Assembly: GCA_964467905.1 (NCBI GenBank)
Contig: CAYXSY010000004.1
Span: forward strand, 1,182-65,181
Direction: 5' to 3'
DNA from: an uncultured Planctomycetales bacterium
GTDB taxonomy: Bacteria; Omnitrophota; Gorgyraeia; Gygaellales; Profunditerraquicolaceae
DNA length: 64,000 bases
Below the pieces are notes generated by a model. It was not told the DNA's origin. It did no database searches and saw only the letters and a program-made list of their open reading frames with translations. A program made the position numbers and the translations under genes. Below are positions 5,010 to 29,576 of the stretch, piece by piece. How positions within the stretch are numbered: position 1 is the stretch's first letter; the number at the start of each line of letters is the position of its first letter.

Positions 5010-5023
5010 AGAGGGAGGTAGTT

Positions 5024-5503
5024 ATGGGAAAACAGGCCAGGGCAATCGCTGAATTAAGCCTTAAGGATTTAGTAAAAGATTTAAATAAAGCTTATGCCGA
5101 TGAATGGTTGGCATTTTATCTTTATTGGTATATGGCCCAGACAGTATCGGGTAAGGCCTATGAAGATATGAAAGAGATGTTAGAGAAAATAGCCAAGGAT
5201 GAGCTTGAACATGCTGAAGAGTTGGCTGATTTGATAACTAAACTTGGAGATGTCCCGCCGTCAAATCCGATGGACTTAGAGAAGAATGCCAATGCTCCGT
5301 ATATAATGCCTCCTAAGAATACCGCCGATATTAACCGTATAATCCGTATTGTAACCGAAGCCGAAGCCAGCGCTATCGAAGTTTATCATAAGATTGCCAA
5401 GAAAACAGCTGGTAAGGACCACGTAACATATCAGCTGGTAACGCATATACTCTCCGAAGAGGTAACTCACGAAGAGATGTTTGAGAATTTGTTGGAAAGA
5501 TAA
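5024..5503 (+). CDS. ferritin-like di-iron protein (Dps-like/bacterioferritin-like)
   Basis: 159 aa. Paired ExxH motifs (DELEHAEE, EEVTHEEM) in a four-helix-bundle-sized protein. Confidence 0.6.
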   Translation: MGKQARAIAELSLKDLVKDLNKAYADEWLAFYLYWYMAQTVSGKAYEDMKEMLEKIAKDELEHAEELADLITKLGDVPPSNPMDLEKNANAPYIMPPKNTADINRIIRIVTEAEASAIEVYHKIAKKTAGKDHVTYQLVTHILSEEVTHEEMFENLLER

Positions 5504-5538
5504 TAATACAATATTAATATATTAAAGGAGAAATTGAT

Positions 5539-5724
5539 ATGGCAAAGGTGACAGTAGATGCTTCTACGTGCGTAGGATGTGCTTTGTGTGAACAATCATG
5601 CCCTGAGGTTTTTGAGGTGCGCGGTGACGGGATAGCCCATGTTAAAGTTAGCGTATGCTCAACATGTAATCTTCAGGAAATTGCCGATCAGTGTCCGGTA
5701 AACGCCATTAAGGTAAGCGAGTAA
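5539..5724 (+). CDS. small [4Fe-4S] ferredoxin
   Basis: 61 aa. CVGCALCEQSCP plus a distal CP motif, as in single-cluster ferredoxins. Confidence 0.8.
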   Translation: MAKVTVDASTCVGCALCEQSCPEVFEVRGDGIAHVKVSVCSTCNLQEIADQCPVNAIKVSE

Positions 5725-5726
5725 TT

Positions 5727-7163
5727 TTAGTAAATTTGCGCTTTTTTCTTCGCTTCCTCTAAGAACTTCAAGAAAGCTTCCTGTTTTTTCTGGTTTAACA
5801 ATTGTTCTGAGAAGGCCGCTTTTTCTTCTTTAAACTTTGTCTCGTCAAGTTTAGAGCGGGATTTTATTTTTATGATATAAAAACCCGAAGACATGCCGAT
5901 AATCTTGCTTGGCTGGTTGTCCTCGAGAGCGTCGGCAACATCCCAGAAACTATCAGAAGAACCTATCCCTTCAATATAACTGCCGTATTTAAACGGTGTG
6001 GTTTCCGCATATTTTAAACCTAACCCCTTAGCAATTTTGCTTAAGTCCAGAGACTTAGGGTTGGTTTTGTATTCCGTCTCCACCTGTGCTAAAGCTTCTT
6101 TTATTTTTCCCTCAGCTATATTTTGGGATTCTTCCTTAATCAGCCGGTCTCTTACTTTATCTTTTATCTCCTCAAAATCCGGGACGTATGATTCTTTCCT
6201 TTCTTTTATCCTGAATATATAGTAGTTGGATTCTATGCTGAATACCTGTGTGTAGTCGTTAGTTTTTAGCCTGCTTATTAGTTCGAGCAACTCTTTAGGC
6301 CAACCTATGCCCGGTATCGGACCTGTCTGCGGGAAGAGCCCGGTTTCTTTGACTTCTAATTTTAAGTCTTTAGCTACTTTATTTAAATCTTCTTTTGCTT
6401 TTATGCGCGGCATGATACCGTTTATTTTTTCTTCCACGGCAGTTTTAGTGTCGGCAGTAAAAGGCAGGATAATATACTCCAGGTTGAAAGAAAGAGGCTG
6501 TTTGAATTCCAGTTTATTCTTATCATAATAGCTCTTTAGTTCATCCTGATTGGGCTGGATATACTTTGTAAATTCCTGAGGCGCAGAGCAGATGTAGTAG
6601 ACGCTTATTTCCTGATTTGTTTTTATATAAGCGTTCTTTATTTCTTCTTCGGTAAGCTTTACCGGCTGCGTTATCTCATCGTAGAGCCTGGCTATCATTA
6701 TGTTCTGTCTGGTTTCTTCTTCAAAGGCCCTGGCCGGCGTGTGAAAATAGTATTGCAGCATCTGTTTATAAAGGGCCTTATCAAAAACACCTTTTTTCTG
6801 GAAGAACGGGTAACTTTTAATCAGCTTTATGACATCCTGGTCGTTCGCGCGTATTTTTCTTTTCGCGGCTTCATGGAGCAAAATAAGCCTGTCCCAGGTT
6901 TGCGATTCCATATTCATATATTTCTGCATTTGGGAGAACATCTCTCCGAACTGGATTACCGCCTGGTTGCGTGTTGCTATCAGGGCGTCTTCGTATTCTT
7001 GGAATGAAACCGGCTTGCCGTATAGCTTGCCGGCGATATTGGCTTTTTTGCTTCCTTTCCCTATGCCGCCAGCCCCCCAGAATATAAACAGAGGTACTAC
7101 AATCAACGCTAAGCCAATCCATATTTTCTTGGAAGTCTTCTTATCTCTTAGTTGTTTAAGCAT
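5727..7163 (-). CDS. PpiD/SurA-like periplasmic chaperone (peptidyl-prolyl isomerase D family)
   Basis: 478 aa. N-terminal membrane anchor (KIWIGLALIVVPLFIFWG), then a SurA-N-like region and a parvulin-like segment. The architecture is typical of PpiD. Confidence 0.7.
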   Translation of the reverse strand: MLKQLRDKKTSKKIWIGLALIVVPLFIFWGAGGIGKGSKKANIAGKLYGKPVSFQEYEDALIATRNQAVIQFGEMFSQMQKYMNMESQTWDRLILLHEAAKRKIRANDQDVIKLIKSYPFFQKKGVFDKALYKQMLQYYFHTPARAFEEETRQNIMIARLYDEITQPVKLTEEEIKNAYIKTNQEISVYYICSAPQEFTKYIQPNQDELKSYYDKNKLEFKQPLSFNLEYIILPFTADTKTAVEEKINGIMPRIKAKEDLNKVAKDLKLEVKETGLFPQTGPIPGIGWPKELLELISRLKTNDYTQVFSIESNYYIFRIKERKESYVPDFEEIKDKVRDRLIKEESQNIAEGKIKEALAQVETEYKTNPKSLDLSKIAKGLGLKYAETTPFKYGSYIEGIGSSDSFWDVADALEDNQPSKIIGMSSGFYIIKIKSRSKLDETKFKEEKAAFSEQLLNQKKQEAFLKFLEEAKKKAQIY

Positions 7164-7323
7164 GCCAACTCCTTTATTAATGTTTATTTAGTTTTACACA
7201 GCCGCGGTATTGATAAAATACCCCGCAGAGTTTAATTATAGACAAAATTAGGGATATTGCAATTAAATAGTTATTATACTATTTTATTGGTTTTATATAA
7301 ATTTTAATAGTATAATTGGGCCT

Positions 7324-7929
7324 ATGAAGGATCTGGAGCTCATCCAAAAGTGCGTTGCTGCTGATCCTGCGGCGTGGCACCTCTTCATAAACGAATACTC
7401 TCGTCTTATCTATACTTATATACGTTGTGTTTTGAGGGTAGGCGGACCCACTGCTTCCAAATATTCCTGCGAGGATATCTTTCAGGATTTCTTTGTCCAT
7501 TTACGCTCAGAAGATTTTAAAAGGCTCAAATCTTACAAAGCTAAGAATTCCTGCAGTCTTAGCACTTGGTTGAGGCAGGTAGCGATTAATTTTACCGTTG
7601 ATTATCTACGCAGGCACAAGCCCATGCTATCACTGGATGATAATATAAATGAAGATACTACTTTCGCGGATATCCTCATCGATGGTTCTCCTTTGGCAAG
7701 GCAGGTTTTAATGGATAAAGAGAAGGCAGGGTTATTAAAAGAGTGCATAAAACAGCTTGCCAATAGCGATAAATATTTCTTAGAGCTTTACCTTAACCGT
7801 AATTTAAGCCTGGAGAAAATAAAAGATTTGCTGCGTATTGCACGCGCAGCTGTAGATATGCGCAAGATGCGTATCTTAGAGCGCTTGCGCCGCTGTTTTA
7901 AAAGTAAAGGTTTTATGTTAGATTTATAG
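7324..7929 (+). CDS. ECF-type RNA polymerase sigma-70 family factor
   Basis: 201 aa. Region 2-like FINEYSRLIYTYIR...FQDFFVHL and a region 4 HTH (LSLEKIKDLLRIARAAVDMRKMRILERLR). Confidence 0.85.
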   Translation: MKDLELIQKCVAADPAAWHLFINEYSRLIYTYIRCVLRVGGPTASKYSCEDIFQDFFVHLRSEDFKRLKSYKAKNSCSLSTWLRQVAINFTVDYLRRHKPMLSLDDNINEDTTFADILIDGSPLARQVLMDKEKAGLLKECIKQLANSDKYFLELYLNRNLSLEKIKDLLRIARAAVDMRKMRILERLRRCFKSKGFMLDL

Positions 7930-7965
7930 TTTCTCTTGCGTCTAATATATTAGGAGGAGAGTTTT

Positions 7966-8670
7966 ATGCAAGGCAAGTTCGAGTCTTTTGTCAGGGCGTT
8001 GTATTTGTCCTGGAAAAAGGACAAGGGGCGGGATCTAGATGCACACCCTGACGCGGAGGAAATTTTATCTTTTACCGAAGGTAAGCTTGGGTCTAGGGAA
8101 TCATCTAGAATACAGGAACACCTAATACACTGTGATGCCTGTATGGAAAAACTTTGCATTTCTTTTGAGCTGGGGCAAGTCGAGAGTTTTGAAGATGTTC
8201 CTGAGGGGGCACTAGAAAAGGCTAAGCTGCTTTCTGATTCGTCATTTAATGCCTCAGTATTAGATATATGTCTGCAGCTTAAGAATGGACTATTGGAGAT
8301 TATAAGGGCGACAGGAAATGTACTTATCGGGCAGGAGCTGATACCCGCACCTGTTTTACGCAGTCGTTCGTTAAAAGAATTCAAGGATAACATAACGATC
8401 TTGAAGGATTTCGATAGTGTAAGGATAAAAACAAAAATAGAAAACAGGGGCGGCAGCGGGTTATCCCTGTATGTCTATATAAGCTACAAGGACCTGCAGA
8501 AAACGCCGGATAATATAAGAGCGAGTTTATTCAAGGGCGATTTAGAGGTTGAGTCTTATGTTGCCAAAGATTCAGTTGTTTTTGAGCATATTTTGCCCGG
8601 CTGCTATAGGATAATTATTTCCGATGGTTCAAGCGAATTGGCCGTTGTGTCTTTGGAAATAAAGGTTTGA
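7966..8670 (+). CDS. putative anti-sigma factor, zf-HC2 type, with no predicted TM helix
   Basis: HLIHCDAC matches the H-x3-C-x2-C anti-sigma zinc-finger motif. Lies directly downstream of the ECF sigma gene. I see no hydrophobic stretch long enough for a TM segment. Confidence 0.6.
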   Translation: MQGKFESFVRALYLSWKKDKGRDLDAHPDAEEILSFTEGKLGSRESSRIQEHLIHCDACMEKLCISFELGQVESFEDVPEGALEKAKLLSDSSFNASVLDICLQLKNGLLEIIRATGNVLIGQELIPAPVLRSRSLKEFKDNITILKDFDSVRIKTKIENRGGSGLSLYVYISYKDLQKTPDNIRASLFKGDLEVESYVAKDSVVFEHILPGCYRIIISDGSSELAVVSLEIKV

Positions 8671-10859
8671 TTATGGAACATATAAATTCTGGCTTGATCC
8701 TGGAAGTATCAGTGCAGGGAAATGTTTTGAAAATGGCCTTATTTGAGCGTGAGTCTTTTGCTCAAACTGTTAGGCATTATAATAATGTTGTTGTAGATTT
8801 CAGGCAAATCCAGCATCTCTCCGAGGATATTATCAATAGCTTAAATAGATCTCTTGTTAAGGAAGATATAGATATCTCGGAAAATATAAGAAAGACAGGG
8901 CAGCTTCTCTGGGATTATATTATTGCTAAGCCGGTTAAGGAAAAGTTAAGGCATGTTTCTAGCCAGGACTTAATTTTATCTTTAGAAGAAGAGCTCTCAG
9001 GTATCCCTTGGGAAATGCTTTACGACGGCGTTGATTTTCTATCCCTTAAGTTTAATATAGGCAGATTGCTGAAATCACAAGGCAATACACCTACGCCCAG
9101 ATATCGTAGTTTAAGTTCGGGATTAAAAATGCTTATTTTGGCTGACCCGGGCGGAGATTTGAAGTCTTCTTATCGGGAAGGATTGTATATCAGAAACCGA
9201 TTCGAGAGGAAGCAGGAGAAAATCACGATAGATTTTAAGTCTACGCAGATAGAGAGAATTTATGTTAAAAAAAACCTGCGTGACTACGATATAGTCCATT
9301 TTGCCGGGCATTGCGAATATAGCCAGACAGAACCGCTTAAAACAGGCTGGATATTGAGTGATGGCAAGTTTAGTATTGAAGATATTCAAGCTCTCTCCCA
9401 AAGCCCGCATTTTCCATCTTTGGTTTTTTCAAATTCATGCCACTCGGCTACGTTGGATGCTGATACGCAGATGTGTTGTTCTCAAAGAGAGAATTATAAT
9501 TTGGCTCAGGCTTTCTTGTTTGCTGGCGTAAGGCATTATATAGGATCTATACGCAAGATAGAAGATAGTGCTAGCTTAGCTTTTGCCAGCGAATTCTACG
9601 ATAATTTGATTAAAGGCAGAAGCATAGGAGAATGTATGCGTCTGGGGCGCCTGAAGTTGAAACAGGAGTATGGCCCCAGGGATTCTTTTTGGGCTAGCTA
9701 TTTGCTTTATGGAGATCCGAGTTTTTCGTTTTTTTACCAGCGCCTGAACAGCAGTTCTGGAAGCAAGAAAGACCCGCTTATTTTCAGCAGAAGTTCCTAT
9801 CTTATCTGCATTATTTTTATCCTTACATTATTATTGAGCTTAGCATTCAGGTACCTTCCTACTCTAAACCCGCAGGCATATTCTTTATATCTTAGTTCAA
9901 AGAGCATGCTTTCTAGGGGAGAGAATAAGCAGGCCATTGCTAGCCTAGAGAAGGCTATAACCAGCGATCCGTTATTTCTGGATAATTATGCAATGTTAGC
10001 ACAGCTATATCATAGGACAGCCGATATAGATAATGCGATTAAATATTATTCACTCTATGCCGCAGTAAGCGAAAAGAAAAAAGACTATATTAATTTATCC
10101 AAGGCATATATTTATTTAGGCTGGGTTTATCATCTGCAAGGCAATTATCCAAAGGCCTTTGATTTTTATAATAAGGCATTGTCATTGAGTATCGATAGGC
10201 GCGATAGACTTAACCAGGCTTCTGCATTGAGAAAGCTGGCTATTTGGTATTTGGATAAGGAGGACTACGATAAATCTCTTGAGCTGTTGGTTAAGAGTTC
10301 CGAGATTAACCGTAATGGTAAAGGTTTGCGTGAGCATAAATATAATCTTGCCTGCGATTATTTTGATATCGGTCTGGTTTTTACCAATAAAGAAGATTAT
10401 GCCAGCGCAAAAGAGTTCTATAACAAGAGCAGAAAGCTTTTTGAAAGTTTAAAGTTGGATAATGAGCTTAGCGATTACTGGTTTAATTTAGGCGAGATTA
10501 GCCTTTTTGATAAAGAATATAATACAGCCATTTCTTATTACAAGAGAGGCTTGGTGATAGATCAGAAACAGGGAAATTTGTTTAACTTAGCCTCAGATTA
10601 TAATATGATGGGCGAGTTTTTTATAGAAACCGGCGATATTAAAGAAGCAGAAAAATATTTTGAGAAGGCATTAGATATCTGCCGGAGAATAAAATCACCT
10701 ATGGATTTGGCTTCTGTTTATTATAATCTAGGAATGCTTTATAAAGCAAAAGAGCAAAAGCAGAGAGCAATTGATTATTTAAGGAAGGCGCAGGAGATAT
10801 ATTCTTCTATAGATACACCTGATTATGCTAATATAAAAGAAGAAATAATTAATTTTTAA
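8667..10859 (+). CDS. CHAT domain (caspase-like) protein with central TM helix and C-terminal TPR array
   Basis: IVHFAGHCEY (His codon 9309-9311) and LVFSNSCHSA (Cys codon 9438-9440) match the CHAT His/Cys dyad context. A hydrophobic helix YLICIIFILTLLLSLAF follows. After it come many TPR-like repeats (AIxxYxKAL-type). The start ATG overlaps the anti-sigma stop (ATGA-type coupling). Confidence 0.8.
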   Translation: MIMEHINSGLILEVSVQGNVLKMALFERESFAQTVRHYNNVVVDFRQIQHLSEDIINSLNRSLVKEDIDISENIRKTGQLLWDYIIAKPVKEKLRHVSSQDLILSLEEELSGIPWEMLYDGVDFLSLKFNIGRLLKSQGNTPTPRYRSLSSGLKMLILADPGGDLKSSYREGLYIRNRFERKQEKITIDFKSTQIERIYVKKNLRDYDIVHFAGHCEYSQTEPLKTGWILSDGKFSIEDIQALSQSPHFPSLVFSNSCHSATLDADTQMCCSQRENYNLAQAFLFAGVRHYIGSIRKIEDSASLAFASEFYDNLIKGRSIGECMRLGRLKLKQEYGPRDSFWASYLLYGDPSFSFFYQRLNSSSGSKKDPLIFSRSSYLICIIFILTLLLSLAFRYLPTLNPQAYSLYLSSKSMLSRGENKQAIASLEKAITSDPLFLDNYAMLAQLYHRTADIDNAIKYYSLYAAVSEKKKDYINLSKAYIYLGWVYHLQGNYPKAFDFYNKALSLSIDRRDRLNQASALRKLAIWYLDKEDYDKSLELLVKSSEINRNGKGLREHKYNLACDYFDIGLVFTNKEDYASAKEFYNKSRKLFESLKLDNELSDYWFNLGEISLFDKEYNTAISYYKRGLVIDQKQGNLFNLASDYNMMGEFFIETGDIKEAEKYFEKALDICRRIKSPMDLASVYYNLGMLYKAKEQKQRAIDYLRKAQEIYSSIDTPDYANIKEEIINF

Positions 10860-10927
10860 ATAGCCGTCTCTTAATATAAAAATCAATTTAGTTTGGAAAT
10901 TTACTTAAAAACCATTATAATTGTATT

Positions 10928-12103
10928 ATGAATAATCAGAAGCCCAGCACCATACTTATAGTTTCTTCAGACAAAGAGCTCAGGAAGATACTCAATATCT
11001 GTCTTGTGGGGTGGGGGTATAAGGTTTGTTTGTGGGATAGTGTTGTCGGTGATACCGGTCCGATTAAGAAAATATCTCCGGATGTCATCGTTATAGACGT
11101 GCATACCGCAAATAAAACTGATTTAGAGATATGCCATACATTAAAGAATGACTTTATGACCGCATTTATACCTGTTGTTACTCTGATAAATAAAAGACAG
11201 CTTCGCGGGCAGCTGTTGAATCTAAAGCATGGAGTAGATGATTATCTTATCAAGCCGCCTGATCCGCTTGATTTGCGAATCAGAATAGAGATGGCTTTAA
11301 AGAGGGTGCAGCATAGTTTTTATGTCAGTCCGCTCACTGGCCTCCCGGGAACGAGGATATGCGAAGAAGTATTGAATGATATTTTAGTAACGGGAAAACC
11401 TTTTTCTCTAGGCTATCTTGATATAGACAACTTCAAGTGTTTTAATGATAACTACGGTTATGTTAAAGGCGATATGGTTATAATGCAGGTTGCCTACATG
11501 CTTTATGTAACTATAAAGAAATACGGCACGTCAACGGATTTTATAGGCCACATAGGCGGCGATGATTTTGTTTTTATTACTTCTACCGATAAGTATAAAG
11601 CAGTATGCCATAATTTTATAACTCTTTTTGATAGGGTAATCCCGTTTCATTACACTGTCGAAGACAGGAATAACGGTTTCATCGTTGCCAGAAACAGGAA
11701 TAACCAGGTAAGAAAAACGTCGTTAATGACAGTTTCCATAGCTGTGGTAAACAGGCTTGGGGCATCCGAATTCAAAAATATATTTCAGGTTAATGAAAAG
11801 GCTGCTGAAATTAAGGGATATCTTAAAGGGATACCCGGCAGTAAGTTTATGGCAGAGAGAAGAAATGTTAAAAGTCCGGATCATTTGAACCCGCAGGTAT
11901 ATAAGAGGCAGGGCCATGCAGTAGATTCTTATAAACCTTTGGGCCAAAGGCTGCTTGAAAAACACATCATTTCTTCTGATGAGCTTGATAGTGCTTTAAA
12001 TTCGCACTGGAGAAGAGGTATGCTTTTGGGTGAGACTTTAAAAGAATTGGGTTTGGTAAAAGAGGAACAACTTGAGCGCTTGCTTTCCGAGGAGGGCAGA
12101 TGA
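10928..12103 (+). CDS. atypical receiver - GGDEF-like (GGDDF) - MshEN/T2SSE_N-like domain protein
   Basis: REC-like N-terminus (ILIVSSDKE...VIVIDV...YLIKP). GGDEF fold (SPLTGLPG, LDIDNFKCFNDNYGYVKGD, GGDDF at 11555-11569). The C-terminus has two tandem LGxxLxxxxxIxxxxLxxxL motifs (PLGQRLLEKHIISSDELDSAL / MLLGETLKELGLVKEEQLERLL), as in c-di-GMP-binding MshEN domains. Confidence 0.7.
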   Translation: MNNQKPSTILIVSSDKELRKILNICLVGWGYKVCLWDSVVGDTGPIKKISPDVIVIDVHTANKTDLEICHTLKNDFMTAFIPVVTLINKRQLRGQLLNLKHGVDDYLIKPPDPLDLRIRIEMALKRVQHSFYVSPLTGLPGTRICEEVLNDILVTGKPFSLGYLDIDNFKCFNDNYGYVKGDMVIMQVAYMLYVTIKKYGTSTDFIGHIGGDDFVFITSTDKYKAVCHNFITLFDRVIPFHYTVEDRNNGFIVARNRNNQVRKTSLMTVSIAVVNRLGASEFKNIFQVNEKAAEIKGYLKGIPGSKFMAERRNVKSPDHLNPQVYKRQGHAVDSYKPLGQRLLEKHIISSDELDSALNSHWRRGMLLGETLKELGLVKEEQLERLLSEEGR

Positions 12104-12624
12104 AAAGATTAATTATATTGTTTTCAATGGTTTTATTTATTGGCGCAGGATTCTCTTGGGCGCAGTCGAATAGCGGCTCTCAAGATGTCGCTGCTTTAAA
12201 GGATGAGATAATCCGCCTGCAGAATAGCGGTGAGCTAAGCATTAAAAGCATTAAAGCATGCTCTAAGATTAATGGCTACGGTTCGTACGTGGAGCTTGAT
12301 CCTCCTAAAGTCAAAAGCGGCGACAGGCTGCTTGTTTATCTTGAACCGGCCAACTACTATATAAATAAAAATAACTCTAAGTACGAAATATATCTGATAG
12401 AAGATATGCTTGTTCTAAATGACAAAGGGGATATCCTTTGGGGTAAGGAAGGAGCGGTTAAATATAATTATTCTTCTGATAATCCGGTGTTAGATTTATT
12501 TATTGCTAACGCTATTGATATTAAGGGGCTTGTTCCCGGCCGTTATATCTTTAAGGCAGAGGTCTCAGATAAGTTAAAATCCCAGAAGGCAAGTGCTATA
12601 TTATCTTTTGAGGTTGTTGAATAG
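12100..12624 (+). CDS. secreted hypothetical protein (signal peptide)
   Basis: 174 aa. N-terminal signal sequence MKRLIILFSMVLFIGAGFSWAQ. The start overlaps the stop of the upstream gene (ATGA). Confidence 0.5.
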   Translation: MKRLIILFSMVLFIGAGFSWAQSNSGSQDVAALKDEIIRLQNSGELSIKSIKACSKINGYGSYVELDPPKVKSGDRLLVYLEPANYYINKNNSKYEIYLIEDMLVLNDKGDILWGKEGAVKYNYSSDNPVLDLFIANAIDIKGLVPGRYIFKAEVSDKLKSQKASAILSFEVVE

Positions 12625-12669
12625 CGCGTGCCCTTGACACCGGATTAACTATATGTTAAACTTACTTTG

Positions 12670-12724
12670 ATGCCACGGTGGACAAATAATGATTGTCCAT
12701 AAAACGTGGCATTTTTTGTTTTTA
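12670..12724 (+). terminator. rho-independent terminator (nested stem-loop plus T-run)
   Basis: ATGCCACG (12670-12677) pairs with CGTGGCAT (12705-12712). The stem encloses an inner TGGACAA/TTGTCCA stem and is followed by TTTTTTGTTTTT. Confidence 0.6.
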
Positions 12725-12735
12725 GAAAGGAAACT

Positions 12736-13083
12736 ATGTCATACGCCGGACCGGAAAAACGTAAATACCCACGTCTCGAGCGCGCCTTTCTCGTATATTA
12801 TACCCCTTTATCAGGCCCGCAGGAGTTTGATTTGACCCAGGCTAAAAACATAAGCTTGGGAGGTTTATTGATTACTACCAGTCATCCTCTTGAAAAGGGG
12901 GCTGATCTGTCTTTAAAGATACGCCTTCCGGGGAATTATTACGCGAATCCTACAGCCAGAGTCATAGAGTCCTACCGCGTTAATCCCGGCACCCAGTTTT
13001 ACAATACCCGTCTGCAATTTTCTTCCATGAAAGATGAAGAGCGCAATGCTATGTCGCAGGTGATTGAAAGCTTCTCTAGGTAA
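12736..13083 (+). CDS. PilZ domain protein (c-di-GMP receptor)
   Basis: RKYPR (RxxxR) and NISLGG (D/NxSxxG) motifs. ATG at 12736 follows an AGGAAA RBS. The track start at 12706 lies inside the terminator T-run. Confidence 0.75.
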   Translation: MSYAGPEKRKYPRLERAFLVYYTPLSGPQEFDLTQAKNISLGGLLITTSHPLEKGADLSLKIRLPGNYYANPTARVIESYRVNPGTQFYNTRLQFSSMKDEERNAMSQVIESFSR

Positions 13084-13267
13084 GTTATTCCTCCCAGCCA
13101 AATTTCTTTAAAAAAATCTGTTAGATTTATTATATCTCTTACGTCTATTAAGGTGAGACCGTAATTTTATACCGCATGTGGCTGTATAAGACGGTTTAAC
13201 CCATCCTTAAGCTGGGGGTATCTATTATAAAAATAGGCTTATTGGATATTGGCGTAGGAGGCAGAAG

Positions 13268-14857
13268 ATGTTAAAGCGTTTATTATTTGTTTTTGTTGTC
13301 TTTTTTCTCGAGGCAGTGACGGTATATGCAGATGGTTTATCCTGGAAGCAGATAAGCAGAGATTTACTTGATACTAGAGATGCTGTCTGCAGTTATATTG
13401 ATGGCAATATTATTTATTTGGCGGCCTCAAGCGGGATTTTTATGAGTACGGATAGAGGATCGAACTGGAGGATTGTTTTAGCCGGTAGAAAGATTAATAA
13501 AATATACGCCGATACATCCTTCCCAAAAAGCGTTTACGCTGCTACTTCTGAAGGTATTTGGCAGAGCCCAGACGCAGGACAGAGCTGGAAGCGTATTTTC
13601 AAAGGTAAGGATTCATTGGAAAGGTACAGTACAAGTTTCTTGTCTTTGCCGGATATCATGCTTAACGGTACGCAGTCAGGTCTTTTCTTGAGTACCGACA
13701 AGGGTAGGACCTGGCGTAGGGTATCAGGGTATTTATCCGATACCTGTATATTGGCAATATCTTCATCCGGGGCCAACAGCAAATATATATACGTAGCTTC
13801 CGTGGATGGAGTATATATGTCTTCTGATAAGGGGCAGACTTGGGATAAGATTTATGCGGTTATTGCCCCGGAGAATTATGATGCAGGCTATGAAGAAGAT
13901 GTACAGGAAGATTCGGAACAGTCTTCAATTATAAGATATGTATCTGTTGCTGCGGATAACGATAAAATAATATATATTGCAACTACCGAAGGGGTTTACC
14001 ATAGCGACAATTTAGGTTTAAGCTGGGAGCGCATAAGTAGTTATGGGTTATTAAGCCGGGACGTTTATTTTGTTCTGCCTTTAAGTAAAGATAAGATCTA
14101 TGCTGCGACTAAAACAGGATTATTTTTATTTGATAAAGGGCGTTGGCAGGAATTAACCTTTGGCCTGCCGATAGATGAGATAAGATCAGTCTACAGCGAT
14201 AAAAAAGAAAATCTTTATCTTGCAACTGACCGAGGATTATTTATGAGCCAGGGGGGCAAGAATGAGATTAATGTGGATAAAGATTATCATGATAGTATTA
14301 TTTCTGATGGAGAAGAGCCGGGTATAAATAAAGTCCAGGAAGCGGCTATCGAATATGCGGAGGTTAACATCAAGAAAATCAAAGATTGGAGAAAACAGGC
14401 TCAATTGCGTGCTTTTCTGCCTAAGATAGCGGTGGATTTTGATTGCGATAGGGATAAAACAGTCTCTACCAATACGTGGGGCATATATAGTTCTTATAGC
14501 AACAGCAATATCACTGCTCCGGCAAGGCATTATGTCGGCCCGGATGATAGTACCAGGTACTATAATAATAACTGGGGTGTTTCTTTGGTCTGGGAATTGG
14601 GGGACTTGATTTGGAGCGAAGCCCAAACTTCCATCGATGTGCGCTCTAGGCTTATGGTTCAACTCAGAGACGACGTGTTGGACGAGGTTACGAAGCTTTA
14701 TTTCGAGAGGATTCGTGTCAGAATGGAATTGGACAATTTGTCTATAGAGGACAGGAAAAAGCGTTTCGAGAAAGAATTGAAGTTGGCAGAATTGACTGCA
14801 CAAATCGATGCGCTTACCGGAGGCTACTTTTCGAGCCAGTTGGAGAAGAAGTATTAA
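13268..14857 (+). CDS. secreted BNR/Asp-box repeat beta-propeller protein; its 3' end is the island integration target
   Basis: Signal peptide plus repeated SxDxGxxW motifs (STDRGSNW, SPDAGQSW, STDKGRTW, SSDKGQTW, SDNLGLSW). The C-terminal ~65 aa are duplicated at 19617-19805. Confidence 0.75.
   Translation: MLKRLLFVFVVFFLEAVTVYADGLSWKQISRDLLDTRDAVCSYIDGNIIYLAASSGIFMSTDRGSNWRIVLAGRKINKIYADTSFPKSVYAATSEGIWQSPDAGQSWKRIFKGKDSLERYSTSFLSLPDIMLNGTQSGLFLSTDKGRTWRRVSGYLSDTCILAISSSGANSKYIYVASVDGVYMSSDKGQTWDKIYAVIAPENYDAGYEEDVQEDSEQSSIIRYVSVAADNDKIIYIATTEGVYHSDNLGLSWERISSYGLLSRDVYFVLPLSKDKIYAATKTGLFLFDKGRWQELTFGLPIDEIRSVYSDKKENLYLATDRGLFMSQGGKNEINVDKDYHDSIISDGEEPGINKVQEAAIEYAEVNIKKIKDWRKQAQLRAFLPKIAVDFDCDRDKTVSTNTWGIYSSYSNSNITAPARHYVGPDDSTRYYNNNWGVSLVWELGDLIWSEAQTSIDVRSRLMVQLRDDVLDEVTKLYFERIRVRMELDNLSIEDRKKRFEKELKLAELTAQIDALTGGYFSSQLEKKY
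14663..14857 (+). repeat. left copy of the duplicated BNR-gene 3' end (putative attL plus island-borne surrogate 3' end)
   Basis: 35-bp perfect core, then ~160 bp that differ from 19652-19805 at roughly one position in five (hand alignment), mostly without changing the protein. Confidence 0.7.
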
Positions 14858-14888
14858 GAAAAATATATTTTCTATGGCAGTAAATAAT

Positions 14889-14928
14889 TTACACTACATT
14901 CTTAATTTTATGGTATAATGTAGTGTAA
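14889..14928. promoter_or_regulatory. perfect 11-bp inverted repeat (TTACACTACAT-N18-ATGTAGTGTAA) overlapping a TATAAT box; putative operator/promoter
   Basis: Arms at 14889-14899 and 14918-14928. TATAAT at 14914-14919 overlaps the right arm. About 70 nt upstream of the first island gene. Confidence 0.55.
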
Positions 14929-14929
14929 G

Positions 14930-14978
14930 CCCCGTTACACCACCGAACTGAAGGATAAGGGTTCTGGGTGTAACGGGG
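14930..14978 (+). promoter_or_regulatory. 12-bp perfect stem-loop in the 5' leader of the first island gene
   Basis: CCCCGTTACACC (14930-14941) pairs with GGTGTAACGGGG (14967-14978). 25-nt loop. Sits immediately upstream of the AAGGAG RBS. Confidence 0.5.
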
Positions 14979-14993
14979 TAAAGGAGAAAAGCC

Positions 14994-15299
14994 ATGAAAG
15001 TATTACAAGGGATTCTATCTGAGAGTAAAGATTATTACCTTCAGGTACGGGAGAAGATTAAGAAAAAGCTAGCCGGTTTGCCAAAAGGTAGCGTAAAGGA
15101 AAGAAAGATAGCCGGCAAGAAATACTATTATCTGCAGCAGAGAGTGGGCAAGAAAGTAGTCCATAAGTATTTAGGTAAGAGTAGGCCCGAAGGGGTCGCA
15201 AACCAAATAAAACAACGCAGAGCATTCAGCTTGGAACTAAAAAAGGTCAATGAGGCATTGAGGATTATCAAACGTTCAGAGGGCAGAAGGCGTGGTTGA
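14994..15299 (+). CDS. small basic hypothetical protein (possible regulator or antitoxin partner of the NTase)
   Basis: 101 aa, Lys/Arg-rich (KERKIAGKKYYYLQQRVGKKVVHKYLGK). Good RBS. The stop overlaps the start of the next gene. Confidence 0.5.
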   Translation: MKVLQGILSESKDYYLQVREKIKKKLAGLPKGSVKERKIAGKKYYYLQQRVGKKVVHKYLGKSRPEGVANQIKQRRAFSLELKKVNEALRIIKRSEGRRRG

Positions 15300-15975
15300 T
15301 CTTATTGGAAAGATTATTAAAGTATTTGTTGATAACAACCTTTTTGAAGAAGGGGTTGAGCTAATCGGCAGCTGGTGTTTTAAATTATACCAGAAGCATC
15401 TTGGAGTAGAGAATTTTCCTCTGCGTACACCGGATATCGATTTTCTGATACCTACGCCTTTTCATGGCAAAGCTCATGCGGACTTTATAGAGCAATTACA
15501 GGCATTGGGTTTCGAGACTGATTTCAAAAGTGACGGCTCGATATATCTCTGGAATGCGGAATTAAAAATTGAGTTTATCACTGCTGAAAAAGGCAAGGGA
15601 ACCGATAGGGCGATTAAGGTTAATAAGCTAGGTATTAATGCTATCCCCTTAAGGCATGTTGGCTTGCTTCTGGATAAGCCAATAATTATCACGGATAACG
15701 GAATGAAAATCCGAGTCCCTGCGCCCAGCCGTTTCTGCCTGCATAAGCTTATCATTGCCTCTCGCAGAAGAAAACCGGATAAACGTTTAAAAGACCTGCA
15801 GCAGGCAATTTATACCTCTACAATTGTCGATAAGAAGGAAATGCAAGAGTTATTCCGGACCCTACCGAAGAAGTGGCGTCAGGCTGTGTTAAGGATGTTG
15901 GATGAGGCTAAGCCGGAATTCCCTTTAATGGATACAGAGATGGAGAGGCTATCGATTACACTACAAAGTATGTAA
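15292..15975 (+). CDS. nucleotidyltransferase-fold protein (AbiEii / GSU2403-like)
   Basis: 227 aa. LIGSWCF...LRTPDIDFLIP resembles the G[GS]...R-T-x-D-I-D-F signature of AbiEii-type and related pol-beta-fold NTases. Confidence 0.55.
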   Translation: MVDLIGKIIKVFVDNNLFEEGVELIGSWCFKLYQKHLGVENFPLRTPDIDFLIPTPFHGKAHADFIEQLQALGFETDFKSDGSIYLWNAELKIEFITAEKGKGTDRAIKVNKLGINAIPLRHVGLLLDKPIIITDNGMKIRVPAPSRFCLHKLIIASRRRKPDKRLKDLQQAIYTSTIVDKKEMQELFRTLPKKWRQAVLRMLDEAKPEFPLMDTEMERLSITLQSM

Positions 15976-15994
15976 TAGTCAATATGTAGTGTAA
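15956..15994. promoter_or_regulatory. second copy of the TTACACTACA / ATGTAGTGTAA inverted repeat
   Basis: Left arm 15956-15966 (10/11 match), right arm 15984-15994 (11/11), 17-nt spacer. Spans the stop codon of the NTase gene, upstream of the next gene. Confidence 0.5.
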
Positions 15995-16041
15995 AAGCTA
16001 CAAGATAATCCTTGAGATATTTAAAACGTTCGTTAATTTCT

Positions 16042-16051
16042 GGGGGGGGGG
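16042..16051 (+). repeat. G10 homopolymer tract immediately upstream of the ATG at 16054
   Basis: Ten consecutive G at 16042-16051, 2 nt before the preferred start codon. Confidence 0.9.
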
Positions 16052-16053
16052 AT

Positions 16054-17418
16054 ATGAACACATTTTTCAGCTATCAAGCAATAGATAAAGAAGGTAAGCA
16101 TTGCGGTGGTATAGTTGAGGCAGTTAATCAGGATCAGGCAGTTAAAAAACTACAAGAACAGGGGCTAATTATAACTTCTTGCCTAATGGTGTCGAATAAA
16201 GGGGATAGAAATTCTATTCCAGTCAGCTGGTTCTTTATATCTTGCGGCGTGATTATTCTTCTCGTTATTTTTAGTGCCTCGCTATTTTTTATCCGAATGG
16301 CTTCTAATTCCAGAGATGATTTAATAAAAGGAGGCCATAGCGATAAAGTTGATAAGCAAAAATTTGATAAAGTATATCGTGCTGCGAAAACGCTTACTGC
16401 CTCAATTGAAGGAGGAATTAGCTATCCAAAATTGCAAGAACTAAACCGTGATTTCCTTACAGAGATTTCTATAGCAGAAGATAGCGTTATTACAGATAAA
16501 GAAAAGAAAGTTATAGAATTATATAAAGCAGCTTATTCCGACTATTCAATAGGCGAGACTGTTTGGGAAGCTATTATTAAATATAGTCTCGATAACCATT
16601 GGCATCAGTATCCTGGCAAAAGTAAGTTGGTTTTTGAAAAATTGAAACCAATTATAGAGCAATTCGGATTAGTATTGGTTTCTAAGCAAACAGAATATGA
16701 TGGAACAATGTATGAATTGCCTAAAACGGAACTTTCAAAAATTTGGATTGCTGCAAAAGAATATATTGATGAAGCAAACGCAATTATATTGGACAATAAA
16801 GTTATCGAAGACGCCGGGGCTGAATTACCAAGTCCAATATCTAACAGAGCGCAGGAATCTAATGGCGAGGAAGAACTATTTCAGAAAGCCAAAGCCGAGA
16901 ACAAAATCCAATCCTATAAATATTTTTTGATGCGTTTTCCTAATGGTATATTTTCTGTTGACGCGCAGAATTTATTGGAAAAGCGTTATAGCGAGGGTAT
17001 CAAAGCATGTTCTGATTTAATTATTGAAGCGGTAGATTACTGTTTAAGAGTTTGTTCTGGATATTCAGATATATGGAGCATTTCTACAAAGAGTCGCTAT
17101 TTGAATTTTAATGAACAAGTTTTATCGATGCAAAAAGAATTTAAAGCTAAAGGAATATTAGAAGAAATAAACAAGACTAAACTAAAACTGGAAGAGTTTA
17201 TGAGGAAATTTATTGATCCACCTCCCAAGTATAGTGAAGCATACAAAAAACTTGTGGAATTATATGGAGTATATTCTCAGATATATGCGTTAGCAATACA
17301 GCCTACGGGATCATTGGCTACATTTAATAATTCCATTAACACCTTAAAAAGTAAAACCATCAGTCTAAAAAGTGAATTAGATGCTATGATTAATATGCCT
17401 CTTGATAATAATCCCTAA
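16054..17418 (+). CDS. membrane protein with GspF/PilC-N-terminal-like head domain, one TM helix and a large uncharacterised helical domain
   Basis: MNTFFSYQAIDKEGKHCGGIVEAVNQDQAVKKLQEQGLII resembles the N-terminal module of T2SS/T4P platform protein F. TM helix WFFISCGVIILLVIFSASLFFI. I recognise nothing in the remainder. Confidence 0.5.
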   Translation: MNTFFSYQAIDKEGKHCGGIVEAVNQDQAVKKLQEQGLIITSCLMVSNKGDRNSIPVSWFFISCGVIILLVIFSASLFFIRMASNSRDDLIKGGHSDKVDKQKFDKVYRAAKTLTASIEGGISYPKLQELNRDFLTEISIAEDSVITDKEKKVIELYKAAYSDYSIGETVWEAIIKYSLDNHWHQYPGKSKLVFEKLKPIIEQFGLVLVSKQTEYDGTMYELPKTELSKIWIAAKEYIDEANAIILDNKVIEDAGAELPSPISNRAQESNGEEELFQKAKAENKIQSYKYFLMRFPNGIFSVDAQNLLEKRYSEGIKACSDLIIEAVDYCLRVCSGYSDIWSISTKSRYLNFNEQVLSMQKEFKAKGILEEINKTKLKLEEFMRKFIDPPPKYSEAYKKLVELYGVYSQIYALAIQPTGSLATFNNSINTLKSKTISLKSELDAMINMPLDNNP

Positions 17419-17438
17419 TCTGATCGCTGAGGCACGCA

Positions 17439-18032
17439 ATGAAAGTTACCTTAAATTTTCAAGATATTGATAACGCATATACTTCAGGAAACTTTTCTGC
17501 TGCAGTTAACTGTGCTCATAATTTTCTTCAGAAAGCGTTATATTTCTGTTTAGCGGAAGCTTTAATTTATCTCAATTGTCATTCTAAACTTATTAGAATA
17601 TGTATCAAAAATAATCATCCCGATGCTGTTAGATATCAAAAAGAATTCAAGGGCGCAGAGTATTATATCCGGCAGATTCATATGGATGATGTTAGTCTGA
17701 AGAACTTTGAAATTACAGAAGCTTTTGCTATTGGCTTAATTTCAGAAACAGAATATGCAGAGGTTAAGAATGTTAAAGATTTTAGGGATAAAAAATCAGC
17801 ACACAATCTTTATTTTGATAAAATGGTATCTGCTGGTCAAATACCAAGAACAGAAATAAGGGAAATCATCGATTCGGCAAAAGGTCTTATAACTAAGATT
17901 AATGTCAGGAAAGACCGGGTTGCTAAAGAAAGCTTAACTGAGACTGTGAATAATTTCGGTAAAAATATAAATGAAGTTTTAAGTAAGCACACGATTGATA
18001 AATTATTGCAGATTATTGCAAGAGAGGATTGA
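17439..18032 (+). CDS. hypothetical protein, possibly HEPN-like
   Basis: 197 aa, all-helical look. N-terminal SGNFSAAVNCAHNFLQKAL resembles HEPN helix 1/2. FRDKKSAHNLY fits an R-x5-H variant of the HEPN Rx4-6H motif. The stop overlaps the recombinase start. Confidence 0.4.
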   Translation: MKVTLNFQDIDNAYTSGNFSAAVNCAHNFLQKALYFCLAEALIYLNCHSKLIRICIKNNHPDAVRYQKEFKGAEYYIRQIHMDDVSLKNFEITEAFAIGLISETEYAEVKNVKDFRDKKSAHNLYFDKMVSAGQIPRTEIREIIDSAKGLITKINVRKDRVAKESLTETVNNFGKNINEVLSKHTIDKLLQIIARED

Positions 18033-19690
18033 TGAAATCCGTAATCTATACCAGAGTAAGCAGCAAAGAGCAGGTGGACAAGTATTCTCTTCCCGCACAG
18101 GAGCGAATACTTAAAGAATGCATAGCCAAAGAAGGCCATGAATTTGTTGATATATATACCGATGCCGGCATTTCTGGTGAAAAGATTATCAACAGACCGG
18201 AGTTCCAACGGCTGCTTGTGGATGCTGATGAAAAGAAATTTCAGGCTGTTTGGGTTATAGACCAGGACAGGCTTTCGCGAGGTGATTTGACAGATTTGGC
18301 TTATATAAAGAAAGTTTTTAAGGAAAACAACATACAATTATGTACGCCATACCAAAAGCTGTCTCTCGAAGATGTAGACGATGATTTTATCAGCGATCTC
18401 TTTGGCATTTTAGCTAAGCGCGAAAGATTAAAAATAAAACAGCGCGCAGACAGAGGTAGGCAAATAAAGGCAGAAAAAGGTGAGTGGGGAGGCCGAACCG
18501 CGCCTTTTGGATACAGCTTTGATATCGAGAAAAACAAGCGTTTAGTTATTGACGAAGACGAAGCCCCTATCTATAGACAGATGATTTCTTTATTCTTAAC
18601 CAAGAATTACGGTATTAAGACTATTGCCGCTGAATTGAATAAACAAGGCTTTAGGAACCGTGCTGGCAAGCCATGGAGAATGCAGGCGGTTCACTATATC
18701 TTAAGGAGTCCGACTTACAAGGGTACGCTTGTTCATCAGAAATTCAAGTTTTACTATACCAAGGAAAATAAAAGACGCTGGCGTGACGAAAAGGTATATA
18801 CCGAAATACCTAATGCGCATCCGGCTTTGATTAGCGAAGAAACCTTTGATTTAATCCAGGATAGACTGACGAACAAAAGGAGCTCGCGTGTAGATTTTAA
18901 TTCCCTTCAGTTATTAACCGGCATACTGGAATGTACTTGCTGCCATAATACATTTAAAGTCGGCAGCACAAGCTTTGGTAAATGGCGGCATCAGATTTAC
19001 CGTTGCAAGACGCGTTATGCACATTGGTTTGATAAAGCCAAACCTACCTGCACGATGAAAACATTTCCTCTGGAGGAATATAACAATAAAATCTGGGGTA
19101 CCTTTCAGGAAGTAGCTAGAAGGCCTGAACTTATCAAGACGGCCCTTGAAAAATCAAGGGTGCCTAATTTAACCAGCCTTGAGTTTCATCAAAAAGAATA
19201 CCAACAGGTGACGCAGAGACTCGATAATTTCCAATCCCATAAGGAGAAAGCCATCTCTTTATGTGTAAAAGGCATAATCAGTGAGCAGGAATTCAAAGAA
19301 CAGCTTGCTTCTCTGATTGCGGAAAAGAGGATGCTTGACCAACAGAAGCGGCAATTAGAAGTCAAGGTAGAGTACCTTAAGAAGCTGTCTTCGCAGGATG
19401 TTAGTAAGGATGCCATCCTGAGATACGCCAAATTTTTCTACCAATCAGATAAGAAACTCACCATTAGCCAGAAAAGAAGGATTTTGGAGGCTTTTGTTAG
19501 CAGGATACTTCTATACAGTAACGGCGAATTTGAGCTTATCTTCAAGTTTCCCCTTCCTGATGACTCTCAACTCCAAGAGCTGCAATTGAATACAAATTCA
19601 CGGATACAAGGTGCAGCTCAGAGACGACGTGTTGGACGAGGTTACGAAGCTATATTTCGAGAGGATTCGCGTGAAAATGGAGCTGGATAG
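18029..19690 (+). CDS. large serine recombinase (resolvase/invertase N-terminal domain, recombinase domain, zinc ribbon, coiled coil)
   Basis: VIYTRVSSKEQ catalytic-serine motif. A recombinase domain follows. CTCCHNTF...YRCKTR zinc ribbon. Coiled-coil-like EQEFKEQLASLIAEKRMLDQQKRQLE. The last ~25 codons read through the 35-bp repeat. Confidence 0.9.
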   Translation: MMKSVIYTRVSSKEQVDKYSLPAQERILKECIAKEGHEFVDIYTDAGISGEKIINRPEFQRLLVDADEKKFQAVWVIDQDRLSRGDLTDLAYIKKVFKENNIQLCTPYQKLSLEDVDDDFISDLFGILAKRERLKIKQRADRGRQIKAEKGEWGGRTAPFGYSFDIEKNKRLVIDEDEAPIYRQMISLFLTKNYGIKTIAAELNKQGFRNRAGKPWRMQAVHYILRSPTYKGTLVHQKFKFYYTKENKRRWRDEKVYTEIPNAHPALISEETFDLIQDRLTNKRSSRVDFNSLQLLTGILECTCCHNTFKVGSTSFGKWRHQIYRCKTRYAHWFDKAKPTCTMKTFPLEEYNNKIWGTFQEVARRPELIKTALEKSRVPNLTSLEFHQKEYQQVTQRLDNFQSHKEKAISLCVKGIISEQEFKEQLASLIAEKRMLDQQKRQLEVKVEYLKKLSSQDVSKDAILRYAKFFYQSDKKLTISQKRRILEAFVSRILLYSNGEFELIFKFPLPDDSQLQELQLNTNSRIQGAAQRRRVGRGYEAIFREDSRENGAG

Positions 19691-19805
19691 TTTGCGTATT
19701 GAGGATAGAAAACGCAGGTCAGAGAAGGAATTGAAATTGGCAGAATTGACCGCTTCAATTGATGCCTTAACGGGAGGTTATTTTTCCAAAAACATCAGAA
19801 AATAG
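19617..19805 (+). pseudogene. displaced 3' end fragment of the BNR-repeat gene (putative attR plus original gene tail)
   Basis: Encodes QLRDDVLDEVTKLYFERIRVKMELDSLRIEDRKRRSEKELKLAELTASIDALTGGYFS, about 52/58 residues identical to the C-terminus of the 13268-14857 product. No 5' part, no RBS. Confidence 0.65.
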
Positions 19806-29125: not shown

Positions 29126-29576
29126 GTCTTTTCTGCAGGGCAAAAGAAAGACTGTCCAGGATTCAAGGATGGCGCTTTTGGATTTAATCAAAAGCCGAGA
29201 GCTTGTCGGAAGTCCAAGAAACAGGTGTATTGTGGTTTTTGACGGATATCCTCCGAGAACAGGGTATTCTTATGAGCGCAAAGGAGCAGTGAGTGCGGTA
29301 TTTTCTTTTGATGATTCAGCAGACGATAAGATAATGAAATTATTGAGGCAGGGAGGCAATCCTAAGAATATAGTGGTTGTTTCTGATGATAAGCAGATAG
29401 TGTCTTTCGCCAGGCTGCATAATGCCGCGGTATCATCAGTTGATGAATTCTTGAAAATAAGCATTGAGCCGGCGCAGCAGAAAGCTGCGCGTCGCGCAGA
29501 AGAAGATGCAAAGCTTAACTATACGCAGGCCGATAAAATAAACCGCGAATTAAAAAAGTTATGGTTGGATAGTTAG
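29079..29576 (+). CDS. NYN-domain (YacP/Rae1-like) ribonuclease
   Basis: [12 protein letters not shown]...VVFDG...VVSDD pattern of YacP-like NYN proteins. Confidence 0.7.
   Translation: MSLLYLIDGCNVINHKSFLQGKRKTVQDSRMALLDLIKSRELVGSPRNRCIVVFDGYPPRTGYSYERKGAVSAVFSFDDSADDKIMKLLRQGGNPKNIVVVSDDKQIVSFARLHNAAVSSVDEFLKISIEPAQQKAARRAEEDAKLNYTQADKINRELKKLWLDS

Follow-up and report, generated by a model that had tools for sequence, protein, structure and literature searches.

How can a gene keep its full reading frame when some 5 kb of foreign DNA has been inserted into its 3' end? The question is raised by a stretch of 64,000 nucleotides (hereafter the window) on contig CAYXSY010000004.1 of an uncultured bacterium of the phylum Omnitrophota, where a gene for a BNR-family propeller protein is followed by an island that ends in a large serine recombinase (LSR) gene. 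We assign a probability of about 0.85 to the reading that the island, at 14659-19612, is a 4,954-bp integrative element that was inserted by its LSR and carries the last 66 codons of its target gene, together with the following mechanism. The recombinase would recognise one site in the most conserved stretch of the propeller gene (…SIDVRSRLM/VQLRDDVLDE…), inside a long C-terminal α-helix, and strand exchange would take place at a dinucleotide within ATG/GT (14656-14658). The attP site would lie at the very end of the recombinase gene, followed in this sub-lineage by a copy, in frame, of the 66 codons with which the target ends. Integration would join host codons 1-463 to this surrogate tail, leave the open reading frame (ORF) at full length, displace the native tail to a position 5 kb downstream, where it would persist untranslated as a remnant, and also swap the last few codons of the recombinase. 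Once integrated, the surrogate tail would act as the working C-terminus of the host protein, hence its purifying selection in the element lineage, and the two homeologous tail copies would also recombine or convert, giving perfect tracts. Related loci and orthologues are cited below by L and P numbers.

The interrupted propeller gene and its island-free relative

The island is bounded by an exact 35-bp direct repeat, CTCAGAGACGACGTGTTGGACGAGGTTACGAAGCT, with copies at 14663-14697 and 19617-19651 (all features of the island and its target gene lie on the + strand). No third copy with up to 3 mismatches was found in the window, and 0 were found in 100 shuffled sequences. A repeat search found the pair to extend over 177 nt with 80% identity (14656-14832 and 19610-19786), with a spacing of 4,954 bp. 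Comparison of the two tail copies over 58 codons in the frame of the ORF at 13268-14857 revealed 35 nucleotide differences (6/6/23 by codon position) and 6 amino acid differences; over 62 codons, the Nei-Gojobori method gave a dN/dS of ~0.10 with pS = 0.62, and the surrogate and native tails as a whole differed at 42/186 nt. A preliminary description, made from the window alone, had reported the 35-bp repeat, the ~5 kb ending in a large serine recombinase, and ~80% nucleotide identity with near-identical peptides to the right of the core, all of which were borne out. It had also claimed that there is no similarity to the left of the core; this needed correction, as homology runs 7 nt further left (14656-14662, GGTTCAA versus GGTGCAG), with 5/7 positions identical and both copies encoding Val-Gln.

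Direct evidence for an insertion came from L001, a 62.6-kb contig that carries the closest orthologue of the propeller gene (P0002, 85% amino acid identity) and has this locus in island-free form. The gene order on L001 (PilZ, BNR, thioredoxin, CbiA/DRTGG, Pta, AckA) is that of the window minus the island. Alignment by blastn, at 88-89% nucleotide identity, matched window positions 3266-14832 to L001 1-11565 and 19610-29723 to L001 11389-21584; the 4,954-bp segment is the sole break in 26 kb of collinearity, and the right alignment restarts exactly at 19610. The site is thus polymorphic for presence or absence of the island, and a further BNR-thioredoxin locus, L118, also lacks it. In a three-way alignment L001 tracked attL on the left and attR on the right, including the intergenic DNA past the stop codon. 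The right tail ends …SKNIRK (…GGYFSKNIRK in L001), as in the three closest orthologues (P0002-P0004); it is 95% identical in amino acid sequence to the P0002/L001 tail, has the same terminus and stop, and differs from L001 at 33/186 nt and 3 amino acids (dN/dS 0.025). The left tail ends …GGYFSSQLEKKY. As the right tail shares the end of the closest orthologues and L001, it is the native, displaced tail, and the left tail is foreign. Taken together, these comparisons show at the sequence level that the island was inserted, and establish which tail is native and which is the surrogate. The two central proposals of the preliminary description, an insertion whose surrogate tail keeps the gene intact and an original tail displaced as a remnant, are therefore supported, and L001 is the kind of orthologue it had expected, with a right-type tail and no island.

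The ORF at 13268-14857, as now read, is chimeric and encodes 529 residues, with codons 1-463 from the host and codons ~464-529 plus the stop from the element. The surrogate 3' end occupies 14659-14857 (codons ~464-529 plus TAA) and continues the frame of the host 5' part; the left repeat copy is its proximal part and not the crossover itself. The displaced native 3' end occupies 19613-19805 (codons 464-527 plus TAG), retains an intact reading frame and holds the right repeat. The product is a secreted BNR/Ycf48-like seven-bladed propeller with a C-terminal helical hairpin, matched in Pfam by Sortilin-Vps10, BNR and PSII_BNR. Its family comprises 933 database homologues of ~520-540 residues, assigned to Candidatus Omnitrophota/Omnitrophica wherever the source names an organism, and all BNR loci that we fetched were from Omnitrophota. 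AlphaFold2 modelling with 58 homologues (mean pLDDT 78.5) gave a signal/anchor helix, the propeller (residues 25-327), a C-terminal domain of helices and two strands, and a final hairpin of helices 451-490 and 496-528 (pLDDT 85-94). Foldseek matches to the propeller fold included Ycf48, GH74 and HTCS sensors; the search with the full model was swamped by the propeller and gave no class for the C-terminal domain, for which a PDB sequence search returned chance-level matches only. The stretch …TSIDVRSRLMVQLRDDVLDEVTKLYFERIR… is near-invariant across the family. The insertion falls at codon 463/464, and residue 464 lies within the helix 451-490; an unrepaired insertion inside this long helix would therefore delete a conserved structural element.

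Other kinds of target were also considered. The window contains no tRNA or tmRNA gene, which rules out a tRNA-type target, and an Rfam search of the whole window at gathering thresholds gave no match. Scans for promoter and terminator consensus sequences found no more matches than in shuffled sequence and were left out of the analysis.

Recombinase clade and attachment site

The recombinase gene extends from a likely ATG start at 18032 to a stop at 19690 and encodes 552 residues in the integrated state (552/553-residue ORF from 18029/18032). Its last 26 codons cross the crossover point and the right 35-bp repeat and then run into the native tail in another frame, and its C-terminus varies with the state of integration. 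The protein has a resolvase domain (PF00239, E = 1.8e-25) with the nucleophilic serine (YxRVS) and the DRLSR arginines, a Recombinase domain (PF07508, E = 5.6e-25) and a zinc ribbon (PF13408, Zn_ribbon_recom, E = 4.3e-5) that scored slightly under the gathering score (24.2 versus 25.3 bits) and has its conserved cysteines in place (C302, C305, C326 and C341). It also matched the phrog_95 integrase family (E = 1e-107). The best NCBIfam matches, CcrC and CcrB, scored 147.5 and 143.3 bits and fell far short of the cutoff (900), which places the protein outside the Ccr equivalogs, and the closest solved structure is that of the SPbeta integrase.

Database searches placed this LSR in a clade of 31 clusters at 49-83% identity, with the next best database match at 28%. 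The catalytic residues R9-V10-S11, R81, S83 and R84 and the DQDRLSRG motif are invariant in the 31-member alignment. Every match in the clade with a named organism was from Omnitrophota, and on this evidence the clade defines a previously undescribed, Omnitrophota-restricted element family. A scan of metagenome contigs with the LSR alignment returned 80 loci, 3 of which were clade members, the rest carrying generic serine-recombinase motifs. The C-termini of the clade (G-x-x-x-[R/G] followed by the stop) are what the V-Q/E-L-R-D-D DNA of the propeller gene encodes in the frame of the recombinase, and GAT-GAx furnishes the TGA stop. The recombinase 3' end is kept in 16 related loci (LSR 52-83% identical, one a deleted fossil), and in all of them it is followed by a BNR tail fragment in the same phase, beginning at residue ~460-464 (loci L002-L005, L011, L091, L093-L096 and L099-L102 among them). 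Because this fragment follows in fixed phase in every locus, the clade shares one attachment site; a single target site is thereby shown clade-wide.

Both junctions could be compared in four elements, those of the window, L002, L096 and L095; for L004, L005, L011, L091, L099 and L102 the left junction lies beyond the fetched upstream stretch (at most 10 kb; 654 bp for L004, to the contig end). In all four pairs the identity of attL and attR begins, on the left, at the same GGT. The window junctions share GGT, CA and then the 35-bp core; those of L002 share GGT, CAG and then scattered matches of at most 10 nt; those of L096 share a perfect tract from G/GTG on (81 nt counted from the Val codon); and those of L095 share only TTGATGGTGGAA (plus TG). 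L095 lacks the tail and its gene is truncated after R467, which confines the crossover to TTGATGGTGGAA. If strand exchange takes place at a constant distance from the conserved P arm (the recombinase 3' end), the dinucleotides allowed by all four pairs are GG (14656-57), GT (14657-58) and C/G-A (14660-61), and GGT alone is invariant across all hosts and elements. For the reconstructed attB sites, dyad symmetry peaks at GG, with a mean of 8.8/22 compared with ~5.5 expected by chance (22 x 0.25). With a crossover at GGT, the G-CAG of attR is host-derived and matches L001, and the T-CAA of attL is element-derived.

From these junctions we infer that the crossover lies at a dinucleotide within ATG/GT, just left of the 35-bp repeat. 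The preliminary description had placed it near the left edge of the core; the four junction pairs agree with that position and put it just outside the core. The attL site would extend over 14631-14683, with the dinucleotide in GGT (14656-14658) or, less likely, CA (14660-14661), and attR over 19585-19637, with the crossover within GGT (19610-19612) and the recombinase 3' end as P arm; both extents are approximate (~±25 bp) and drawn by analogy with characterised LSRs, for which minimal attB sites of 26-38 bp have been reported (Durrant et al. 2022, PMC10083194). The island thus has the layout of an integrative element, with direct repeats attL and attR at its flanks and the integrase gene abutting attR.

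Several observations weigh against this reading. The attP site shows no clear dyad symmetry at the proposed centre, and the window sequence alone would be equally compatible with a crossover inside the 35-bp repeat, at any dinucleotide within 14663-14697. The window LSR has lost the usual TGA of its clade (GAT GAx to GAC GAC), giving a C-terminal extension and an ORF of 552 residues when integrated and 601 if excised, compared with ~531 in relatives, and loss of the stop might impair the recombinase. No excisionase or recombination directionality factor and no transfer or replication gene was recognisable in the window element in Pfam, NCBIfam, PADLOC and PHROGs scans. A scan of IMG/VR viral contigs found no clade member (best match 33% identical). 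Finally, one pointer in favour is ambiguous: the L003 contig has a 56-bp exact terminal redundancy that joins the LSR end to the tail and cargo (implied circle 6,208 bp), which is possibly the circular attP form and could also be an integrated copy with a 56-bp perfect tract or a repeat-bounded assembly.

The missing excision and transfer genes and the lost recombinase stop would suit an insertion that was real and is now immobile, with a domesticated or decaying element and a surrogate tail that has become a fixed gene end. Fossilisation does occur in the family: in the L096 island (11366-14476; P0065), whose cargo is an NTP_transf_2/Polbeta pair and a serpin, the recombinase is cut to its first 50 and last 55 residues. 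We regard this alternative as the best survivor among those considered, though less likely than not. In the window the recombinase ORF is uninterrupted and keeps every catalytic motif, neither att site is damaged, and the native remnant is undecayed, its 3 amino acid differences from L001 and its retained stop suggesting a recent insertion. With the possibly circular L003 as a further pointer, we infer that the window element is probably still mobile.

The latitude in the window sequence, together with the 81-bp perfect tract of L096, would likewise fit an exchange inside the 35-bp repeat, in which case the repeat would be the recombination core, and attP and attB would have to share long identity. 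Comparison across elements makes this improbable. The L002 junctions share at most 10 identical nt in this region, and the L095 junctions share only the TTGATGGTGGAA that lies left of the core, the L095 element having no BNR homology past ~+10. Serine recombinases require only a matching central dinucleotide, and the identity stops on its left side at the same GGT in all four pairs. With the crossover placed at that GGT, the perfect tract lies to its right and needs a separate explanation.

Tail lineage and the perfect tracts

The surrogate tail could be followed through related elements. The LSR of L002 is 82% identical to that of the window, and the propeller proteins of the two hosts share only 45% identity. 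The attL tail of L002 has 82% nucleotide identity to the attL tail of the window and ends …GGYFSSQIKGKD, and its attR remnant is a very different native tail. The same tail lineage is common to the window, L002, L003 (LSR 78% identical) and the distal part of the fossil L096, and it ends …GGYFSSQ[IL]K in related elements, in hosts with BNR proteins only ~45% identical. As the tail is shared by related elements in distant hosts, it belongs to the element. Element tails differ from one another mainly at third codon positions, with dN/dS values of 0.10 (window versus L002) and 0.04 (L002 versus L096); synonymous sites were saturated in comparisons with the L003 tail. These ratios indicate that the surrogate tail is under purifying selection within the element lineage, as expected if the host protein uses it as its functional C-terminus for as long as the element is in place. 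The preliminary description had taken the coding-type divergence to mean that the tail evolved in another host. The divergence is indeed of coding type; the origin needs rewording, to a tail kept by purifying selection within the element lineage and probably recombining with host tails. Tail carriage is not universal: the 11.3-kb L095 element (LSR 60% identical) has none, and its host gene stops nine codons after R467.

The perfect 35-bp tract stands out from the rest of the tail. It has 0 differences at ~8 synonymous sites, where ~5.8 would be expected from the distal pS of 0.72 (P ~4e-5), and L002 integrated with 12 differences over the same 36 nt. In L096, where the two tails are identical for 81 nt from the crossover, the attL tail is 22-25% divergent from element-type tails in its proximal part and 8-12% in its distal part; compared with L097 the counts are 18/81 and 8/105 differences, respectively. 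This contrast makes the L096 tail a mosaic. The 35-bp tract of the window and the 81-bp tract of L096 most likely arose by recombination or gene conversion between tail copies, and two routes are possible, namely conversion after integration, or tail-mediated excision or loss followed by site-specific re-integration. The window tract has 7/35 differences from both L001 and L002, and this comparison was uninformative as to whether the tract is of host or element type.

Two further loci, L097 (2873-3073) and L098 (1599-1799), have BNR genes with an element-type tail (…SSQIKGKF) that is 95% identical to the L002 element tail. No island or remnant was found downstream in L097/L098 (P0089); the surrogate tail may have been donated by their lineage, or they may be scars of elements lost by tail-tail recombination. 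A broader picture can be offered only tentatively, and we think it rather less probable than its negation: host and element tails would repeatedly swap sequence, either by homeologous recombination in which elements leave via the tails and integrate anew or by gene conversion, elements would 'update' the att-proximal part of their tail to match the present host, losses would leave scars such as L097/L098, and the hairpin would be shuffled horizontally with the LSR as vector.

The architecture could in principle be an artefact, a chimera in which element and host contigs were misjoined through the 35-bp or the homeologous repeat. The contig is metagenome-assembled, and the contigs of related elements often end at these repeats (L002, L003 and L006). 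Such a chimera would however require two independent false joins, the 35-bp identity is below the k-mers usual in assembly, and the same architecture with both junctions is present in the independent assemblies L002, L095 and L096, all of which makes it very improbable. Least probable of all is an ancient tandem duplication of the gene 3' end between whose copies unrelated genes accumulated with no site-specific insertion: it too would give two direct coding-type copies, but the locus of the close relative L001 contains one tail and no inserted DNA, the left tail belongs with those of recombinase elements in distant hosts and not with the host lineage, and the recombinase 3' end is fused in fixed phase to a tail fragment in 16 of the loci examined.

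Element gene content and comparison with known systems

Analysis of the window, L002, L003 and L006 revealed a common backbone of surrogate tail, non-coding block, DUF6788 gene, NTP_transf_8 gene and recombinase. The 47-bp non-coding block (14882-14928), a putative promoter/operator for the operon of the DUF6788 and nucleotidyltransferase genes, contains a palindrome, O1 (TTACACTACAT-N18-ATGTAGTGTAA), that encloses an extended -10 box, TGGTATAAT. In L002 and L006 the block has 94-96% identity, compared with ~80% for the flanking coding DNA. A 53-nt perfect hairpin (CCCCGTTACACC…GGTGTAACGGGG; 14929-14981; fold z-score -6.9), with inverted 12-mers, is inserted between O1 and the ribosome-binding site; it is missing from L002, L003 and L006 and has no second copy in the window. 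The DUF6788 protein (14994-15299, 101 residues, 80-85% identical in L002, L003 and L006) is a putative DNA-binding regulator or antitoxin. Its family search found 330 clusters, with PF20586 on 120/120 listed homologues; members named by source are all from Omnitrophota, and many lie on tiny contigs. The protein itself had no match in local Pfam, NCBIfam, PADLOC and PHROGs scans. Its gene overlaps by 8 nt with that of the NTP_transf_8 nucleotidyltransferase-fold protein (15292-15975, 227 residues; PF12281, E = 8.5e-28), which is 84-85% identical in L002, L003 and L006 and gave only chance-level matches in a PDB sequence search.

A second palindrome, O2 (15956-15994), lies at the 3' end of the nucleotidyltransferase gene. 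The two palindromes (TTACACTACAT-N17/18-ATGTAGTGTAA, at 14889-14928 and 15956-15994) bracket the DUF6788 and NTP_transf_8 genes, an arrangement also found in L002, L003, L006 and L117. In the minimal 2,971-bp element of L002, O2 is directly upstream of the recombinase gene, and this position suggests that one DNA-binding protein may control both operons. The gene pair is probably a regulatory or toxin-antitoxin-like maintenance module. Circumstantial pointers are the overlapping two-gene layout, the palindromic operator and a wide copy number; the pair matched no toxin-antitoxin or defence family in PADLOC or NCBIfam. Bracketed as it is, it might also form a cassette of its own, mobile or regulatory, with control over the recombinase. 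In L117 (P0045) the bracketed DUF6788-nucleotidyltransferase module follows a different BNR tail, and the contig ends before any recombinase position.

Two low-GC genes (16012-18032) between O2 and the recombinase are specific to the window and absent from related elements. The first (16012-17418) encodes a 468-residue protein with only a GspF/PilC-N-terminal-like segment of ~40 residues (TIGR02120 at residues 19-59 only, far under the cutoff); by way of speculation, it could be a pilus-interfering or exclusion factor. The second (17439-18032) encodes 197 residues without a family match, and its stop overlaps the recombinase start. GC content across cargo windows was 0.31-0.37, and PADLOC, PHROGs and NCBIfam assigned no function to the four cargo genes. 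Elements of the family range from a 3-kb minimal cassette to islands of more than 10 kb with phage-like or defence cargo. In the window island the integrase is the only PHROGs match, which gives no indication of a prophage or satellite, and some distant relatives carry TerL, D5 primase or Rep_O. Individual cargoes include TerL, a D5-type primase, VRR_NUC and HTH_17 in L095 (268-11586); a pair of an OLD-like TOPRIM ATPase and a PLD nuclease in L099 (~3365-11611); a DUF3854/D5 primase with a MerR/HTH_17 gene adjoining the LSR in L102; and Phage_rep_O in L091.

Outside the element, nearly all genes in window positions 3266-29723 are on the + strand; the relative L001 is Logan-assembled. A 7-nt tandem repeat (TAGTAAC x 8.9) occupies intergenic positions 29574-29635, before a gene for a metallo-beta-lactamase-fold protein, and at this site L001 has about three copies only, plus an unrelated GC-rich palindromic insert.

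To our knowledge, mobile elements of Omnitrophota, a widespread and uncultivated phylum of very small cells, are almost undescribed. A full-text literature search found nothing that pairs Omnitrophota with a serine recombinase, and the propeller gene was likewise not found in it. The locus overturns no principle. It does indicate that LSR elements can 'bring their own gene end' even where that end is a structured domain of 66 codons, it yields natural attB/attP pairs that belong to a new LSR clade, and it implies that some annotated BNR-family C-termini in metagenomes are chimeric. If the tail-shuffling picture were true, a conserved hairpin of an Omnitrophota envelope protein would be a horizontally shuffled module.

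Known elements share parts of this strategy. SPbeta SprA, skin SpoIVCA and the A118-type LSRs belong to the same enzyme class and make intragenic insertions. Such elements split the gene, and its function returns only on excision, whereas the function of the window target gene would be kept while the element is integrated. Site-specific LSR clades that use one conserved intragenic site, for example in prolyl isomerase or Mg-chelatase/comM genes, have been described, with disruption of their targets (Durrant et al. 2022, PMC10083194). Like those clades, the LSRs described here, down to ~50% identity, are locked on one coding site across divergent hosts.

Islands and prophages with tyrosine integrases target the 3' ends of protein genes such as guaA, rplL, rpsI and lysS (Ambroset et al. 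2016, PMC4701971). Their strategy at tRNA, tmRNA and protein genes is the same as here, with a surrogate 3' end on attP and a displaced native end. The window element differs in its serine chemistry, with a 2-bp stagger and no branch migration, so that long identity is not mechanistically needed. Among serine-integrase integrative and conjugative elements (ICEs), those that target rumA in streptococci and clostridia have att in the 3' end of the integrase gene and swap the 3' ends of target and integrase; direct repeats lie in the target and the integrase gene, the exchange shifts the frame and disrupts rumA, and disruption of the target is reported for each of the 29 insertions of serine-integrase ICEs (Ambroset et al. 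2016, PMC4701971). The rumA ICEs and the window element thus both have att in the 3' end of the integrase gene and reciprocally swapped gene ends. In contrast to the rumA ICEs, the window family supplies a homologous in-frame tail, and its elements are 3-11+ kb in size and have no conjugation genes.

The closest functional analogues are SCC and SCCmec (CcrAB/CcrC), which are likewise LSR cassettes without transfer machinery of their own, CcrC and CcrB being the best curated matches to the window LSR. Their insertion at the 3' end of rlmH/orfX does not break the ORF, because the element supplies the terminal codons. The differences are that the window LSR is not a Ccr protein (147 versus 900 bits), that 66 codons of structured helix are replaced as opposed to a few, and that target and phylum are others. 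What is new here, compared with all of these systems, is the family itself, its phylum and target gene, an LSR element with a selected 66-codon replacement domain, and the signs of tail shuffling.

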